This document shows, piece after piece, positions 6,100 to 11,208 of a DNA stretch of 39,206 bases. Position 1 is the stretch's first letter. Every line of letters starts with the position of its first letter. The stretch is from Frankiaceae bacterium. GTDB lineage: Bacteria > Actinomycetota > Actinomycetes > Mycobacteriales > SCTD01. The notes under the pieces are model-generated. The model did not search any database. It saw only the letters and a program-made list of their open reading frames with translations, and was not told the DNA's origin. A program made the position numbers and the translations under genes. The stretch is taken from assembly GCA_947479995.1 (NCBI GenBank), contig CANKBT010000002.1, positions 1 through 39,206 on the forward strand, written 5' to 3'.

Positions 6100-7017
6100 G
6101 TGACCCCTCGCACCGCAGCCGCGCTCACCGCGCTGGCCCTCGCCCCGGCGCTCGCCCTCGCGCCGACCGGCGCCACCGCCGCGTCCTTCCCCGAGACGGT
6201 GCCGCTGCCCGACGCGTCCTCGCCGGAGGGCATCGCCGCCGGCCCGGGCACCACGTTCTTCGCCGGCTCGCGGGCCGACGGCAGCGTCTACCGCGCCGAC
6301 GCCCGCACCGGGCAGGGCGCGCCCCTCGTCGAGGGGACGCCCGGCGGCGTCGCCGTCGGCCTGACCTACGACCAGGCGTCCGGCCTGCTGTGGGTCGCGG
6401 GCGGTGCGACCGGCACCGTCACCGCGTACGACGGCCGCACCGGCGAGCTCGTCGTGCAGTACACCGCCCCGCCCGCCGCGTCCGGCGCGCGCTTCCTCAA
6501 CGACGTCGTCGTCACCCGCGACGGCGTCTTCGTCACCGACTCGAGCAACGCCGAGCTGGTGGTCGTGCGCACCGACGGCCGGGCGCTGCCCGACGACGTC
6601 GCGCTGCTGCCGCTGACCGGCGACTGGAGCCAGGGCCCGGGCTTCAACGCCAACGGCATCCGCGAGCTGCCGGGCGGCGACCTGCTCGTCGTCGACCAGG
6701 GCACCCTGCTCCGCGTCGACCCGTCGACGGGCGTCGCCGAGCTGCTGGAGCAGACCGGCGGGCCCGACCTCACGGCCGGCGACGGCCTGGAGCTGCGGGG
6801 CTCGACGCTCTACGTCGTCTACGGCCTGTCGCGCGACTCGATCGCGGTCGTCGACCTGGGCAGGAGCTCCTACGCCGTGACCGGGGAGATCACCGACCCC
6901 GACTTCGAGCGGCCCACCACGACCGCCTTCATCGCGGGCGCGCTCTACAGCGTCAACGGCAAGTTCGACACGCCGGGCGCGACCGAGTTCGAGGTCGTCC
7001 GCAGCGCCACCCGCTGA
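6100..7017 (+). CDS. secreted beta-propeller protein (SMP-30/gluconolactonase/LRE- or NHL-like)
   Basis: AGGAGG sits 6 nt upstream of GTG 6100. Sec-type signal peptide [20 protein letters not shown]. The body is strand-rich and repetitive. It is the tail of track ORF 4198..7017. Confidence 0.7.
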
Positions 7018-7024
7018 CCGTCCG

Positions 7025-7058
7025 CCCCGGGGTGGCGGGGGTCCCCGCCGCCCCGGGG
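7025..7058 (+). terminator. GC-rich hairpin after the last chromosomal gene
   Basis: CCCCGGGGTGGCGGGG (7025-7040) pairs with CCCCGCCGCCCCGGGG (7043-7058) with one G.T position. There is no U-tract, as is common in actinobacteria. Confidence 0.55.
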
Positions 7059-7105
7059 CTGACAGGATGGCCGGCATGGAGAAGCAGCAGGAGTTCTTTC
7101 GCGTA

Positions 7106-7158
7106 CCCTGCTCTGACCTGCGGTGATGGTCGCTTCCCCTCGCTGACCTGCGCCGATG
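7106..7158. repeat. imperfect direct repeat pair around core CTGACCTGCG (7113-7122 and 7143-7152)
   Basis: CCCTGCT-CTGACCTGCG-GTGATG versus CCCTCG-CTGACCTGCG-CCGATG, 30 nt apart, in the non-coding junction 7059-7220. Confidence 0.5.
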
Positions 7159-7220
7159 CGTTCGGTGGAGCGTGGGGCGTCGTGGGGCCGCTCGGTGCGC
7201 TTGGCCAAGATCATGCGGGC

Positions 7221-7592
7221 CTACTGCGGGGTGATCATGCGGAGCAGCCGCTCGAGTTCCGCCTCTCGTTCCTCGCGGCTCGGGTCGTCGAGCATCGACT
7301 GGGGGATCGGGGCGCCCTGCGGCAGTAGGGCGCGGACCTCGGCATCGGTCATGGCCACCACCGACGCGTCGCCGATGGCGCTGTCGGTCAGGGTGGTGTG
7401 CCGGAACCGCTTGCCGTCGGGTCCCACCTCGTAGATGAGCAGCTGCTGGCGGAACAGGCCGGCGCGGCGCAGGCGGTAGAGCTCGCCGCGGGCGCACTTG
7501 CCCTCGCTGGGGTGGCGGTGCGTCGGCTCGGTGTGCGTAAGGGTCCAGCCGTGCTCGAGGGCTTCGGCGACGACGGGCGGGTGCTTGGTCAT
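7221..7592 (-). CDS. hypothetical protein (orphan, 123 aa)
   Basis: Clean ORF with protein-like composition, ending in an acidic helix (...[19 protein letters not shown]...). Divergent from the 7690 operon. No family recognised. Confidence 0.6.
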
Positions 7593-7654
7593 GGCGCCGA
7601 GCGTGCAGGCGGGGTACGACAGTCATCGAGCGCCGACCTACGTAATACAAAGTC

Positions 7655-7683
7655 TGGACTGGCGTCATACGTCGCGGTACAGT
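7655..7683 (+). promoter_or_regulatory. promoter: -35 TGGACT (7655-7660), 17-nt spacer, -10 TACAGT (7678-7683); leaderless start at ATG 7690
   Basis: The hexamers lie in the lowest-GC stretch I noticed in the window (about 7636-7689). The -10 ends exactly 6 nt before the ATG and there is no SD. Confidence 0.5.
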
Positions 7684-7689
7684 GATGCC

Positions 7690-8061
7690 ATGCCCGCAGG
7701 AGAGCGTGACTACGACGGCGTCGAGTACGCCGACATGGTCTTCGGCGAGGTCGACTGGTCCGAGGTTGAGGGCGGCGCCCACGACCCCGCTCGCCGCCGC
7801 GAGCGCCTGGGCCAGCCGAACGAGGTCAACGTCCACACGACCTGGGCGACCGAGGCTTGCCAGGACCCGCGGCGGATCGTGCGGTCGGCGGGCAGCCGAA
7901 GCGGCATGACGGTCAAGGTCACCGGCTTCAGCCCGAGCGCCGGGTTCGTCGTGACGGTCATCGTCGCGCCGAAGGACTTCCCGCCCGCCGAGCGGTGGCA
8001 TGGCGCGACGGCGTACAAGAGCAAGACCAGCGAGGTCACGGACTACGAGAGCGAGGGGTGA
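7690..8061 (+). CDS. BrnT-like (RelE-fold) toxin candidate
   Basis: 123 aa. The C-terminal half ...[25 protein letters not shown]....[18 protein letters not shown] resembles the strand/strand/C-terminal-helix pattern of BrnT-type toxins. The gene order is toxin first, RHH second. Family call is from memory. Confidence 0.45.
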
Positions 8062-8068
8062 GACGAGG

Positions 8069-8506
8069 ATGAGCAAGAAGAGCGTGCGCGAGATGCTGCT
8101 GGCAGAGGCGGCCGAGGCCGAGGCCGTGGCCGAGATGGAGGACGGAGGCGAAGCGCCGGCTCAGCCGGTGCAGCGCGCCCGACGCCAGGCCGCGGACCCG
8201 TCGCAGGTCTACTCGGTACGCATCCCCGTCGACCGGCTCGAGCAGCTCCGCCGGCTGGCAGACACGCGCGGCGTCGCCCCGACCGCGCTCGTGCGCCAGT
8301 TCGTCCTGGAGGCGCTCGATCGAGAGTCGGCACTCGACGAGCTGAAGCAGGCGCACTTCGACTTCGTCTTCACCGAGGAGGAGCCCCGGATCATCGAAGA
8401 GCCGAGCGCGCCGCGCGCACCCGCCGTGAACCTGGGCCCGCGCCGTCAGCAGGCTGCCGCTCCTGTGCGCCGCGACTCCGTCGTCGCCAGGCGGGTAGCG
8501 CAGTGA
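8069..8506 (+). CDS. ribbon-helix-helix (CopG/BrnA-like) DNA-binding protein, antitoxin candidate
   Basis: 145 aa. The central segment [38 protein letters not shown] has the strand-helix-helix pattern of RHH proteins. The gene starts 7 nt after the previous stop. Confidence 0.55.
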
Positions 8507-9576
8507 TCAACAAGGACAGCCCGCGGTACGTGCCGCTGCTCAAGGGCAAGCAGGGCGAGCTGGACGCTCTCGTCGACACGAGCATCACCACACAGGCGAC
8601 GACGATCCCTCTCATCGAGGTCGTGCCCGGCAGCGGGCAGAGCGACGACCCGCTCGAGATCCGGGCCGACTGCTCCAAGCTCATCGAGCGGCTCGGCAAG
8701 AGGTGGAGCGGGCGCGTCATGCTCGACGGCGGGCTGCTCGATCAAGACGTCGCGCTCGACGCCGCCGACCACGGCGTCGTCTACTTCCTCGCCGAGGAGG
8801 CCCGGCGGTGGACCATGACTGCTCAGCCGGTACTTCGGCTGGGAGACCCGCATCGCGTCTTCCTCGACGTCGCGACCGTCTGCGCCGAGGACGGCAACGG
8901 GCTCACGATCCGCCTTACCAACGACGAGCTCGACGAGGAGCCGGAGGTCCTCGACACCGAGCTCGAGAGCGCGGTGTCACTCATCGGACTTGCGTACGAG
9001 GACGTCGACCTGCTCATCGACCTCAGCGAGGTGCAGGGCGAGCCCGCCGTTGCCGGCGCCGCCCGGATCGTGCTTCCGCTGCTGCGGGGGCTCACGAGCA
9101 TCGACCGGTGGCGGTCGGTCACCGTCGCGTCGGGGTCCTTCCCGATCGACCTGAGCACCTTCACTGCCTGGGTCGTTGGCGAGCGGCCGCGGGACGACGC
9201 CAAGCTCTACGACCGAGTGACCACCCGCTGGCACGGCCGGCGGCTCGACTACGGCGACTACGCCGTCGCTCACCCCGTGCTGGGCACCGGCGCGCCGTAC
9301 GCGCCGCCCCCGCAGCTGCGCTACACCGCGTCGAGCAGTTGGATCGTGCTCAAGGGCCGGCGCACCGACCCGCGGGCGAACAACCAGTTCTACGACATCT
9401 GCGACGTCGTGGCGGCCCACCCCGAGTACGCCGGCGCAGGTCTGGGCGTCGCTGACGCGCGGATCGCGAACAGTCGTGCCGAGGGGCCCGGCAACGGCAC
9501 CACATGGCGGCGCATCGGGACGGCGCACCACCTGGACTACGTGGCGCTGCGCCTCACCACTCTCGGCGAGCCCTGA
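8503..9576 (+). CDS. Beta-family protein (T4 beta-like / sce7725-related), function unknown
   Basis: 357 aa. GTG 8503 overlaps the RHH stop (GTGA). The N-terminal motif RYVPLLKGKQGELDAL is the hallmark I associate with the Pfam Beta_protein family. Confidence 0.6.
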   Translation: MINKDSPRYVPLLKGKQGELDALVDTSITTQATTIPLIEVVPGSGQSDDPLEIRADCSKLIERLGKRWSGRVMLDGGLLDQDVALDAADHGVVYFLAEEARRWTMTAQPVLRLGDPHRVFLDVATVCAEDGNGLTIRLTNDELDEEPEVLDTELESAVSLIGLAYEDVDLLIDLSEVQGEPAVAGAARIVLPLLRGLTSIDRWRSVTVASGSFPIDLSTFTAWVVGERPRDDAKLYDRVTTRWHGRRLDYGDYAVAHPVLGTGAPYAPPPQLRYTASSSWIVLKGRRTDPRANNQFYDICDVVAAHPEYAGAGLGVADARIANSRAEGPGNGTTWRRIGTAHHLDYVALRLTTLGEP

Positions 9577-10111
9577 GCCCCTCACGCACGACGCGCTGCA
9601 GGTCCTCGAGCGGGAGCCGCTCAACGAGCTGCTCCCAGAGCTGCCAGCGGGTCGCCTTCGAGAGCCGTGCGGTGCCGCCGTGCTGCTCGAGCAGCCCGTA
9701 GACCTCGTCTCGCCAGAGCAGCTGCGCGACGGCGAGAGGGTCGACGGCGGGGTTCCGGCTGGCCGGGCGCGCCTCGTGCAGCACCGCGGCGCCGTCGACG
9801 TCCTCGGCGACCCACACTCCCCACCAGTCGGGGAGCAGGTCGACGGCCCGGCCGGTGTGCTTGCCCTCGACGACGAGGACAGCCTCGTCGACGACCCGGC
9901 CGTAGAGGTCGACCTGTCCTTCGAGACGAGAGAGCCGGTCCTGCGCGCCCTTGATCTCGCAGCCGACGATGTGCCCGTTCACGGCAGCGACGTCGGCGCG
10001 CGTCGCACCGAGGCAGAGGCCGAGCTCGTCGCGCAGCAGCGTGTCCGGCGGCTCGCCGTGCAGCTCGACGAGGCGCTGCCGTACGGCGTCTCGGATCACG
10101 GCGTGGTGCAC
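9554..10111 (-). CDS. PD-(D/E)xK nuclease-fold protein (sce7726/MmcB-like)
   Basis: 185 aa from GTG 10111. The motif ...GATRADVAAVNGHIVGCEIKGAQDRLSRLEGQVDLY... gives D...E-x-K spacing typical of restriction-endonuclease-like folds. The start is supported by a TACCGT -10 placed 6 nt upstream. Confidence 0.6.
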   Translation of the reverse strand: MHHAVIRDAVRQRLVELHGEPPDTLLRDELGLCLGATRADVAAVNGHIVGCEIKGAQDRLSRLEGQVDLYGRVVDEAVLVVEGKHTGRAVDLLPDWWGVWVAEDVDGAAVLHEARPASRNPAVDPLAVAQLLWRDEVYGLLEQHGGTARLSKATRWQLWEQLVERLPLEDLQRVVREGLRARREW

Positions 10112-10117
10112 ACGTGC

Positions 10118-10123
10118 ACGGTA
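10118..10123 (-). promoter_or_regulatory. -10-like TACCGT (minus strand), 6 nt before GTG 10111 (leaderless geometry)
   Basis: Plus-strand ACGGTA at 10118-10123. The spacer GCACGT precedes the GTG and there is no SD. Confidence 0.4.
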
Positions 10124-10182
10124 GTGCCGGCTGGCTGATCGCGGCGATCCTGTGCTCGGTCTGTGATGTCGGTACCCGGCTC

Positions 10183-10188
10183 TACGGT
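10183..10188 (+). promoter_or_regulatory. -10-like TACGGT, 6 nt before ATG 10195 (leaderless geometry)
   Basis: Matches TANNNT with an exact 6-nt spacer. Back-to-back with the divergent 10118-10123 element. Confidence 0.4.
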
Positions 10189-10194
10189 CCACGC

Positions 10195-10401
10195 ATGGAC
10201 GCCGTCGACCTCTTCGACTTGACGCCTCGCGCCTTCCGCCGTCTGGTCGTGCTGCTCATGCTCGCGCTGATGGCCCTCATCGACCCCGTGCGAGACGCGG
10301 TCATCGGGTACCTCATGCAGTGGGGCGAGGCCCGCGCCGAGCAGGTGTCCGACGTCCTGCGCGAGCACCTGACGACCGAGGCGCCCGCGCCTCCGCCGTA
10401 G
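10195..10401 (+). CDS. small membrane protein (68 aa, one TM)
   Basis: ATG 10195 lies inside track ORF 10114..10401. Codons 10114-10194 have low GC3 (ggt, agt, tgt, gat, cca), so I prefer the shorter version. Hydrophobic segment RRLVVLLMLALMALI. Confidence 0.5.
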   Translation: MDAVDLFDLTPRAFRRLVVLLMLALMALIDPVRDAVIGYLMQWGEARAEQVSDVLREHLTTEAPAPPP

Positions 10402-10404
10402 CGT
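10399..10404 (+). promoter_or_regulatory. -10-like TAGCGT, 6 nt before GTG 10411 (overlaps the stop of the previous gene)
   Basis: Matches TANNNT with an exact 6-nt spacer. Co-transcription with 10195..10401 is an alternative. Confidence 0.3.
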
Positions 10405-10410
10405 CGCGCC

Positions 10411-10626
10411 GTGACGTCGCGCCTGCTGCCGCCGGACGGCGCCGGCAACCGCGCCTTCGAGCCGCCGGTGCCGGTGCTCGTCGAGCGCGACGGCGCGTGG
10501 CACCGCGGGCAGGCCGAGGTGTGGCGGGACTCGCGCTACCTCGTGCGCTACCGGAACGCGGCGACGACGCAGACGTACCTGCACTGGGTGCCGGCCGAGC
10601 GGGTGCGGGCGGACGACGAGGCTTGA
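10411..10626 (+). CDS. small hypothetical protein (71 aa, possibly SH3/Tudor-like barrel)
   Basis: High GC3. ...VLVERDGAWHRGQAEVWRDSRYLVRYRN...HWVPAERV... has a strand-rich small-barrel look. Confidence 0.5.
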   Translation: MTSRLLPPDGAGNRAFEPPVPVLVERDGAWHRGQAEVWRDSRYLVRYRNAATTQTYLHWVPAERVRADDEA

Positions 10627-10641
10627 CCGCAGACACGACGA

Positions 10642-10671
10642 AGCGCCCCCCGGCCGAAGCCGAGGGGCGCT
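10642..10671. terminator. bidirectional hairpin between convergent genes
   Basis: AGCGCCCC-C-CGGC [CGAA] GCCG-A-GGGGCGCT: a 12-bp stem with one internal mismatch and a tetraloop. It lies between stop 10626 (+) and stop 10690 (-). Confidence 0.6.
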
Positions 10672-10689
10672 GTGGTCGTGCGGGTGCTG

Positions 10690-11208
10690 CTAGGCCTTCC
10701 GGCTGACCGTGAACCGGCTGCCGGCGAGGACGGTGGCGGCGCTGCCACCGATCTCCGAGCGCATGACGACGACCAGGGCTGCGGGTGCGGTGAGCACGAA
10801 GCTGCCCTCGAGGTCGAAAGGCAGCGGGGTGCTGGCGCCGGCCGACGCCGTACCGCCAATCAGGTAGGGCGCGGCGGGGGTCATGGTGGTGGCGTTGCTG
10901 CCGCCGACGTTCGCGGCGACGGCCGCGCCGTTCTCGACGCGCCCGCCGGACAGGTTGCTCGCCGGGGCGACGGTGAAGCCGTAGCCGATGACCAGGCCGG
11001 TGGTGGTGGCGGCGCTGACGTAGTAGCCCTCGCAGTCCCACTCGTAGGTGCCGGCCGCCAGCGTCGGGCTGGTGAAGACGGTGACCAGAGTGCCGGTCGC
11101 GAGGGCGGTGTTGGTGCTGACGACGTTCGCGGCGAGGCGCTGGAACAGCGCGGGCTCGTCGACGTCGACCTCGGTGAGGCGCCCGCCGACGAGCGCGACG
11201 GCGCGCAC
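10690..11208 (-). CDS. tail fibre / receptor-binding-like protein
   Basis: 172 aa, Gly/Ala/Thr/Ser-rich and strand-rich. Last gene of the minus-strand structural block. Its N-terminal LVGGRLTEV motif is shared with the upstream fibre protein. Confidence 0.5.
   Translation of the reverse strand: MRAVALVGGRLTEVDVDEPALFQRLAANVVSTNTALATGTLVTVFTSPTLAAGTYEWDCEGYYVSAATTTGLVIGYGFTVAPASNLSGGRVENGAAVAANVGGSNATTMTPAAPYLIGGTASAGASTPLPFDLEGSFVLTAPAALVVVMRSEIGGSAATVLAGSRFTVSRKA

Follow-up and report, generated by a model that had tools for sequence, protein, structure and literature searches.

A cassette of four genes that a siphovirus-type prophage carries as cargo at its tail-fibre end, in the actinobacterium listed as Frankiaceae bacterium, probably constitutes a system against phages that acts as one unit, by abortive infection (Abi) or superinfection exclusion, and that belongs to the class of gop-β-cII and PD-λ-2. 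The cassette lies in contig CANKBT010000002.1 (assembly GCA_947479995.1), of which positions 1 to 39,206 were analysed and are referred to here as the window, itself part of a 64.9-kb metagenome contig. The four genes are given below with their lengths in amino acids (aa) and the GC content of their third codon positions (GC3).

7690-8061, plus strand: g1, BrnT-like in its predicted fold, 123 aa, GC3 0.93
8069-8506, plus strand: g2, ribbon-helix-helix (RHH)-type protein by concordant weak matches, 145 aa, GC3 0.88
8503-9576, plus strand: g3, β-family protein, 357 aa, GC3 0.92
9554-10111, minus strand: g4, cII/sce7726-family protein, 185 aa, GC3 0.90

Lists of open reading frames (ORFs) are noisy in the window because its GC content is about 75%, and the real frames were chosen by codon-position GC; the second-position GC of g1 to g4 is typical. 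The coordinates of the four genes, first proposed in a first-pass annotation made from the sequence, are borne out by the GC3 values, by the lengths of homologues, by N-termini and by matches to hidden Markov models (HMMs). The N-terminus "MPAGE..." of g1 is found in 38 homologues, the relatives of g2 open with "MSES(V/I)R...", and the majority of the relatives of g4 are also 185 aa long. The spacing described at the same time holds as well, with a gap of 7 nt between g1 and g2 and a 4-nt overlap in which the stop codon of g2 and the start codon of g3 share the letters GTGA.

Kinship with validated defence systems

The core of the cassette is known and has been validated in Escherichia coli, whereas neither the BrnT-fold/RHH front end nor the combination of all four genes has been described before; a literature search found no description of a BrnT-like/RHH pair combined with β and cII. 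The first-pass annotation had stated that no function is known for the Beta family and that no characterised system has this composition. For the core both statements are wrong, since members of the family are needed for defence by gop-β-cII and by PD-λ-2, since β together with an sce7726 protein corresponds to β and cII of P4, and since both systems have been experimentally validated.

The gop-β-cII locus protects E. coli against λ and P1, and does so when cloned on a plasmid in K-12 away from P4 (Rousset et al., 2022; PMC9122126). In the account that the same authors give of Ghisotti (1990), gop is toxic in the absence of β. The phage accessory gene orf184 was shown to trigger cell death via gop-β-cII (Silas et al., 2023). 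PD-λ-2 is an Abi system in which the HigB-like component A neutralises the toxic component B, an Xre-helix-turn-helix (HTH)-peptidase protein, and in which the β-family component C is required for defence (Vassallo et al., 2022; PMC9519451). In the RefSeq record of P4, gop encodes 133 aa, β 355 aa and the convergent cII 264 aa; β is labelled "beta family protein" and cII "sce7726 family protein". The models "gop", "beta" and "cll" of PADLOC represent the P4 proteins.

Several features of the cassette are shared with gop-β-cII, namely the size of β (357 aa here, 355 aa in P4), a convergent cII with the same invariant E...D...ExK...QxxxY pattern, a small toxin-type gene directly upstream of β in one operon, and a position as cargo near the integration end of a mobile element. 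It differs in that the slot of gop in P4 is filled here by two genes, the BrnT-fold and the RHH gene, that identity to P4 β and cII is just 22-24% and β matches PD-Lambda-2_C of PADLOC rather than "beta", that β and cII are separated in P4 by a 27-nt gap with a terminator and overlap here by 23 nt, that cII has 185 aa here and 264 aa in P4, and that the host, at 75% GC, is an actinobacterium. Neither g1 nor g2 could be assigned as a gop homologue, as there is no similarity to P4 gop and no match to the PADLOC model "gop".

The resemblance to PD-λ-2 concerns the three co-oriented genes, which follow the order of a BECR-superfamily toxin-like protein, a DNA-binding antitoxin-like protein and then β, and the component C match at about 1e-34 in PADLOC. 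BrnT and HigB-like toxins belong to one BECR/RelE-ParE superfamily and both come first in their operons (PMC11980606), so that g1-g2-β parallels A-B-C of PD-λ-2. By analogy, the cassette may also share an Abi-type logic derived from toxin-antitoxin (TA) systems in which β would be needed for defence and not for neutralisation. Unlike in PD-λ-2, where A is HigB-like, g1 has a BrnT-like predicted fold and does not match PD-Lambda-2_A, and where B of PD-λ-2 is a toxic protein of about 400 aa composed of an Xre-HTH domain and an M78 (ImmA/IrrE) peptidase, g2 is a 145-aa RHH-type protein without a peptidase and gave no match to HTH_3, Peptidase_M78 or PD-Lambda-2_B. Furthermore, a true PD-λ-2 locus found in the IMG/VR viral collection (L066) is without cII, which the window has. 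PADLOC, proposed earlier as a check of the region, returned component matches (PD-Lambda-2_C and "cll"), and under its rules no complete system would be reported, because there is no gop and no match to A or B of PD-λ-2.

The β protein

The assignment of the 357-aa protein g3 to the Beta family holds over its full length, as Pfam Beta_protein (PF14350) matches at 4.1e-62 across 341 of 342 profile positions. In PADLOC, g3 matches the PD-Lambda-2_C models at 9.9e-35, 1.1e-27 and 1.4e-08 and does not match the P4 "beta" model; its identity to P4 β is 22% (E 1e-4). Membership of the NCBIfam family sce7725 was considered and rejected, with no NCBIfam match at E<=1.

Structure prediction with AlphaFold2 and a Foldseek search, also proposed when the protein was first noted, gave a confident TIM-barrel model (pLDDT 95.7, pTM 0.93), in which strands and helices alternate as in a barrel, and remote enzyme matches only. 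The top matches are all TIM barrels at a probability of 0.9-1.0, but with TM-scores of 0.3-0.4 and 9-15% identity, and they come from the aldolases, DHQase, an HpcH-like lyase and PEP mutase, families that are unrelated to each other. In the BFVD viral library there is a single close match, to an uncharacterised protein of Gordonia phage Powerball (TM 0.83). The model hence suggests a TIM-barrel-type fold without a close solved relative. Among 82 β proteins from genomes of 29-75% GC, the residues E19, E39, D75, R137, D173, R230, D252, Y253, R273, Y274, D318, H342 and H343 are invariant or nearly so, and several conserved residues lie on or right after predicted barrel strands, a pattern that, on the model, would be that of a catalytic or ligand-binding face. 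P4 β is without several residues that are otherwise near-invariant (E39, R230, Y253, R273, Y274, D318 and H342).

From the uniformly metabolic TIM barrels among the Foldseek matches, and from conserved acidic, basic and histidine residues that suggest catalysis, one might conclude that β is a metabolic enzyme of an aldolase, lyase or dehydratase-like kind, encoded by an auxiliary metabolic gene with no part in conflict between phage and host. This we regard as scarcely credible: the matches are remote and scattered over unrelated enzyme families, on phages, satellites and integrative and conjugative elements (ICEs) β nearly always has a nuclease-like cII as its pair and partners of toxin type, the neighbourhood is without metabolic genes, and members of the family are required for phage defence (PMC9519451, PMC9122126).

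The convergent cII gene and its overlap with β

The gene facing β had been described as an sce7726-type gene with a D...ExK motif, and on both counts the description is upheld. The NCBIfam model sce7726_fam matches g4 at 1.9e-41 (142 bits, with a cutoff of 70), the PADLOC model "cll" for P4 cII matches at 1.1e-18, the database record of g4 lists PF26915 (Phage_P4_cII), and the protein is 24% identical to P4 cII (E 9e-13). Across 44 cII homologues including P4 cII, the residues E29, D40, E52, K54, D58, R62 and Q66 are invariant and Y70 is present in at least 90%. PD-(D/E)xK nucleases of the RecB/Cas4 type typically show D...ExK with QxxxY after it, and judged from its residue pattern g4 is a probable PD-(D/E)xK nuclease. 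The pairing of an sce7725 with an sce7726 protein, as first suggested, consequently stands for g4 in sce7726 and does not stand for g3.

How regularly the two genes are neighbours was tabulated in two sets of loci. A scan of IMG/VR with a β profile gave 29 loci, 27 of them with downstream DNA present, and in 26 of these 27 viral loci a cII ORF converges on β; among the actinobacterial loci that were found with g1 and contain β, cII faces β in 15 of 16. The regular Beta/sce7726 neighbourhood stated in the first-pass annotation is therefore real. The convergent pair also occurs in the E. coli prophage Rac-SA53, in an integrase-linked island of Nocardia and in another metagenome contig. What lies upstream of β is far less constant. 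None of the IMG/VR β loci contains a g1 homologue, and the region upstream of the viral β genes varied, often with no tightly coupled gene or with unrelated ORFs. Three IMG/VR loci (L066-L068) hold true A-B-C systems of PD-λ-2, with matches of 1e-28 to 1e-45 for A and 1e-157 to 1e-186 for B. A further locus (L050, 2189-5669) encodes a PDC-M63A-like protein, a PD-λ-2B-like Xre-M78 protein, β and a convergent cII, and is a hybrid that joins two separately catalogued systems. Taken together, both catalogued systems have β in common, cII is found with it in nearly all of the loci surveyed, and the front end is modular.

The 3' ends of the two genes are arranged in the window as follows.

9554-9576, no strand assigned: tail-to-tail coding overlap of g3 and g4, 23 nt, with no hairpin between the genes

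The folding z-score at this junction is +0.18, and because there is no hairpin the convergent transcripts of g3 and g4 must overlap. In the window, as in 15 of 15 actinobacterial four-gene loci, the overlap measures exactly 23 nt. Other β/cII pairs overlap at their 3' ends in 29 of 30 cases, by 14-140 nt with a median of 44, and the exception has a frameshifted cII; P4, with its terminator between the two genes, is the outlier. The arrangement suggests that expression of β and cII could be coupled by antisense transcription or transcriptional interference.

Two observations on stand-alone β-cII pairs may be added. Mycolicibacterium phage Mycofy1 (PQ356897) contains an unannotated cII/sce7726 ORF (locus L034, 4896-5555, minus strand; HMM E 1e-64) that lies just after the lysis cassette and faces the β gene of the phage, so that a sequenced actinophage carries β-cII as cargo. 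In the island of Nocardia beijingensis (locus L036), a stand-alone β-cII pair has a gene with a Hypoth_Ymh domain (9255-10010, minus strand) and an integrase gene no more than a few kb away, an arrangement suggestive of a small island of defence or cargo genes.

The toxin-type front end

BrnT/BrnA is reportedly a type II TA pair, said to have been described by Heaton et al. in 2012 and to be represented by the PDB entries 3U97 and 7VD7. A module with the toxin first and an RHH protein second had been read from the order of g1 and g2, and this reading is supported in its gene order by the g2 gene lying downstream of g1 in 24 of 24 loci and for the toxin-type member by the structural match of the g1 model to the BrnT protein 7vd7_A. 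The g1 family comprises 130 homologues, and 234 representative clusters at 50% identity, with members that are almost all actinobacterial. The AlphaFold2 model of g1 (pLDDT 87.8, pTM 0.82) has one match in the PDB at E<=0.001 in Foldseek, 7vd7_A (probability 1.00, TMt 0.74, root-mean-square deviation 3.0 Å), a protein that Pfam BrnT_toxin recognises at 1.5e-24; a BrnT-like probe sequence likewise picks out 7vd7_A and 3u97, "Ribonuclease toxin BrnT". Among the distant relatives of g1, 2 of 10 match BrnT_toxin as their sole Pfam family, in register and below threshold (1.5e-4 and 7e-4).

The first-pass description of g1 as brnT-like is therefore kept for the fold and for the toxin-first order and dropped for sequence membership in the Pfam family (0/38). 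Assignment as a BrnT member by sequence was rejected after the negative results from Pfam, from hhalign and from a search of PDB sequences with the g1 profile, which gave no match. By its model, g1 is BrnT-like in fold and at best a very divergent relative, it falls outside the family as Pfam defines it, and it may more broadly be described as a BECR/RelE-superfamily-like, toxin-type protein of a divergent actinobacterial family.

The g2 protein consists of an acidic N-terminal helix, a basic linker, a core of a β-strand and two helices (about residues 47-85) and a C-terminal tail. One and the same segment of the core gives sub-threshold matches to CopG_antitoxin (0.0087), RHH_1 (0.064) and a RelB-like family (0.16); a relative matches DUF6290 at 5e-4 in this segment, and the only match in the PDB is the Arc repressor, in register, at E 0.84. 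g2 is presumed to be the antitoxin and autorepressor.

Compared with BrnT/BrnA, the pair shows the toxin-type gene first and the putative RHH gene second in tight coupling, it also occurs as a stand-alone pair, and the g1 model superposes on 7vd7_A. On the other hand, g1 is about 30 aa longer than BrnT and stays below the Pfam family, and the pair is joined here to β-cII. BrnA is an RHH autoregulator with its RHH at the C-terminus (PMC11980606), whereas the RHH of g2 lies in mid-protein, preceded by the acidic helix and followed by a tail that is linked to β.

This tail is encoded by positions 8390-8506 of the window and contains the sequence NLGPRRQ at residues 121-127. In the related loci L008-L031, the corresponding motif xLG(P)xR(R/Q/S) is present in 17 of 17 g2 proteins from loci with β and in 0 of 7 from loci without β, at 13-23 residues from the C-terminus except in the outlier L008, where the distance is 68. 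The association with β is significant in a Fisher test (p about 3e-6), a statistic that is inflated by shared ancestry because most loci without β form a separate clade. In the close β-less relative L014, g2 ends directly after the RHH. From its distribution, the LGPRR tail is a possible docking or substrate peptide for β.

The region ahead of g1 is the GC minimum of the whole 39-kb window (7614-7713) at the 60-, 100- and 200-nt scales, which agrees at all three scales with the lowest-GC stretch noted there in the first-pass annotation.

7614-7689, plus strand: candidate promoter region, lowest-GC stretch, putative promoter function

A candidate promoter is formed by TGGACT (7655-7660) and TACAGT (7678-7683) with a spacer of 17 nt and 8 of 12 consensus positions matched. 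Six nucleotides separate the end of the -10 element from the ATG of g1 and there is no Shine-Dalgarno sequence ahead of g1, which would make a leaderless g1 mRNA plausible. The leaderless promoter that had been proposed at this place is accordingly present as a motif, which stays below the threshold of the consensus scan; the separate promoter proposed for g4 was not found. The putative -35 element is flanked by a palindrome, TACGTA at 7639-7644, and by a copy reading ATACGT at 7667-7672, and the two are a possible RHH operator, though too short for statistical meaning.

Conservation of the four-gene cassette

A search with the g1 profile found 26 genome loci, which are composed as follows.

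g1-g2-β-cII: 15 loci of 26
g1-g2-β: 1 locus of 26
g1-g2 only: 7 loci of 26
contig too short to tell: 1 locus of 26
distant g1 only: 2 loci of 26

The four-gene set is thus co-conserved, and it is so over several actinobacterial families, on prophages and on actinomycete integrative and conjugative elements (AICEs). Where a g1 relative is at least 62% identical, β follows directly downstream in 16 of 17 cases, in several families and in two kinds of mobile element. Cassettes at the edges of AICEs, and so outside any prophage, were found in Saccharothrix (two strains) and Umezawaea, beside genes for RepSA, FtsK/SpoIIIE, NUDIX and HD proteins. In these loci (L004, L038 and L039, from Saccharothrix mutabilis, Umezawaea endophytica and Saccharothrix sp. 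NRRL B-16314, respectively) the cassette is followed by a conserved block of HD, NUDIX and DUF5919 genes, beyond which lie the AICE genes for an HTH regulator, FtsK/SpoIIIE and RepSA. This block of three genes may constitute another module of cargo or defence.

Both modules, g1-g2 and β-cII, can stand alone, and this bears on whether they cooperate at all. A BrnTA-like TA pair serving addiction or the stress response could simply lie beside a self-sufficient β-cII pair, as is frequent where defence or cargo genes gather in islands. This reading is in line with the 7 loci in which g1-g2 occurs without β, one of them closely related (L014/L040, 67% identity) and in a housekeeping setting, and with at least 26 viral loci in which β-cII occurs without g1 and often with nothing tightly coupled upstream. 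We consider two such independent neighbours unlikely. The three co-oriented genes are joined by a 7-nt gap and a 4-nt overlap behind a single AT-rich upstream region, β lies immediately downstream of g1 in nearly all of its closer homologues, the g2 tail motif is found only where β is present and the g2 of a close β-less relative is cut after the RHH, and in PD-λ-2 defence depends on the TA-like pair and β together (PMC9519451). Functional integration of the four genes is favoured because of the co-variation of the tail, the translational coupling and the precedent of PD-λ-2.

A different question is whom the cassette serves. It is always found on integrative elements, TA modules classically stabilise mobile DNA, and in P4 the locus lies beside int and att and includes a gene with the lysogeny-type name cII, all of which would fit a role in the element's own life cycle (lysogeny control, stabilisation or post-segregational killing) with any anti-phage effect incidental. 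Such a role is decidedly improbable as the main function, given that the plasmid-borne gop-β-cII protects K-12 against λ and P1, that a phage accessory gene triggers the system, that P4 gop, β and cII are described as non-essential, and that the gop-β-cII locus of P4-like satellites occupies a hotspot otherwise holding restriction-modification (RM) systems, retrons, Gabija and Kiwa (PMC9122126). The carriage of the cassette on both prophages and AICEs supports the proposal, made in the first-pass annotation, of mobile-element cargo that is a credible defence or exclusion system.

Setting in the prophage and neighbouring features

On the minus strand, the stretch between about 35.4 and about 10.7 kb holds genes that PHROG scans identify as encoding the terminase (TerL), the portal, the tape measure and proteins of the minor tail. 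The structural genes stop at about 10690, the last one being 10690-11208 on the minus strand, and NAD synthetase and other housekeeping genes lie to the left of 7017. The cassette accordingly has the distal end of the virion module as one neighbour and the chromosome as the other, and the prophage setting first described is confirmed by virion genes on one side and housekeeping genes on the other. The further features of the region are these.

7018-7065, plus strand: left hairpin, GC-rich, following the final chromosomal gene, whose stop is at 7017; folding free energy -46.7 kcal/mol, z -5.7
7221-7592, minus strand: extra gene g0, GC3-supported (0.94), 123 aa, divergent from g1
10114-10401, plus strand: extra gene g5, GC3-supported, hydrophobic, probably a membrane protein
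10411-10626, plus strand: extra gene g6, GC3-supported, 71 aa
10632-10680, both strands: right hairpin, GC-rich, between 10411-10626 (plus) and 10690-11208 (minus)

The two flanking terminators of the first-pass annotation are very stable hairpins without a T-tail. The right one has folding free energies of -35.7 on the plus strand and -38.8 on the minus strand (z -6.2 and -7.5), the left one is likewise without a T-tail, and a scan for T-tailed terminators over 6900-10800 found none. At the right hairpin the cargo region ends on that side. Between the two hairpins seven GC3-supported genes were counted, so that the earlier number of four non-structural genes has to be revised. The additional g0 has no family match in Pfam, PHROG or PADLOC, g5 has a possible alternative ATG at 10195, and g6 gives a weak Agenet/Tudor-like match (E 0.0012). 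The start codons of g4 and g5 lie 2 nt apart inside a GTGCAC-ac-GTGCAC palindrome. As parts of the cassette, g0, g5 and g6 were considered and rejected; tblastn matched none of them in the 26 related loci, and they are neighbours.

With regard to the boundary, these genes are also present on a second metagenome contig, from another sample (L003), whose first position corresponds to 7042 of the window and so falls within the left hairpin, which is compatible with a junction there and no proof of one. Att-type direct repeats of the 6990-7260 junction were searched for and only chance matches of 12-14 nt were found elsewhere in the window, and a tRNA search of the window found none. The prophage edge proposed at first consequently stands as a prophage, and no att repeat inside the window marks its exact boundary.

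Weighing the evidence

A number of points weigh against reading the four genes as a single defence cassette. The defence phenotype comes from E. coli relatives, the actinobacterial members being known here from their genes, so that defence is ascribed to them by analogy, and neither β nor cII has a known mechanism in any of the systems; literature searches found no mechanistic account for sce7725/sce7726/PF14350, for Phage_P4_cII/PF26915, for 7VD7 or, in a broad search, for gop and its toxin role. The rules of PADLOC give no complete system in the window. As for the single components, Pfam BrnT_toxin (PF04365/DUF497) is found in 0 of 38 members of the g1 family at E<=10 and the hhalign comparison of g1 with 7vd7_A is insignificant (probability 2%), the RHH call for g2 is drawn from several concordant matches that are all sub-threshold, and the nuclease fold of g4 is read from its motif, with no sequence match in the PDB and no Pfam family of the PDDEXK clan in the 44 members. 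A consensus scan of 6900-10800 gave no promoter and hence leaves the promoter and the leaderless start unsupported. In addition, the g1-g2 pair alone occurs in a housekeeping setting (L040) like an ordinary TA pair, and the strength of the tail-motif association is diminished by common descent, as mentioned above.

If the four genes do act as one anti-phage cassette, the RHH of g2 would repress the AT-rich, probably leaderless promoter and the protein would neutralise g1, while the β-specific LGPRR tail would link the TA pair to β. As an enzyme or ligand sensor, β would then answer a phage cue, as may be imagined from the P4 system and orf184, and its response would free the BrnT-like protein as an RNase, and perhaps cII as a nuclease too, such that the infected cell or the incoming phage is stopped. 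It is uncertain which component acts as the toxin, given that A of PD-λ-2 looks like a toxin and is the neutraliser.

Implications for the defence family

New with respect to the validated core are, besides the front end and the four-gene combination, the near-universal 3' overlap of β and cII, the TIM-barrel model with its conserved face and the β-linked motif in the g2 tail. A more far-reaching view, which is offered tentatively and goes well beyond what we would call probable, is that β-cII is a widespread, self-contained two-gene immune core in hosts of 29-75% GC, in which β, a TIM-barrel enzyme or sensor not recognised before, would act on a short partner peptide or be plugged by it, expression of cII would be coupled to that of β via the obligatory antisense overlap of the 3' ends, and the toxin modules would be swappable. 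Were this true, β would convert a phage cue into effector release via a partner peptide, here the LGPRR tail of g2; gop, the HigB-like and Xre-M78 pair and the BrnT-like and RHH pair would be plug-in effectors on one sensor; and gop-β-cII and PD-λ-2 would form one modular superfamily, with the present cassette as its first actinobacterial representative.

The two systems are listed as unrelated, yet β occurs in both and it is the toxin-type front end that varies. The catalytic-looking conserved face of the predicted β barrel offers concrete residues for mutation, and the β-specific tail motif of g2 is a testable candidate interface. The cassette also indicates that the class reaches into high-GC Actinomycetota, where rules of the PADLOC type would miss a complete system, which is relevant to the annotation of defence in Streptomyces-type and mycobacterial hosts and to phage therapy and engineering there. 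The value of the cassette lies mainly in the comparative leverage that it gives on this defence family.

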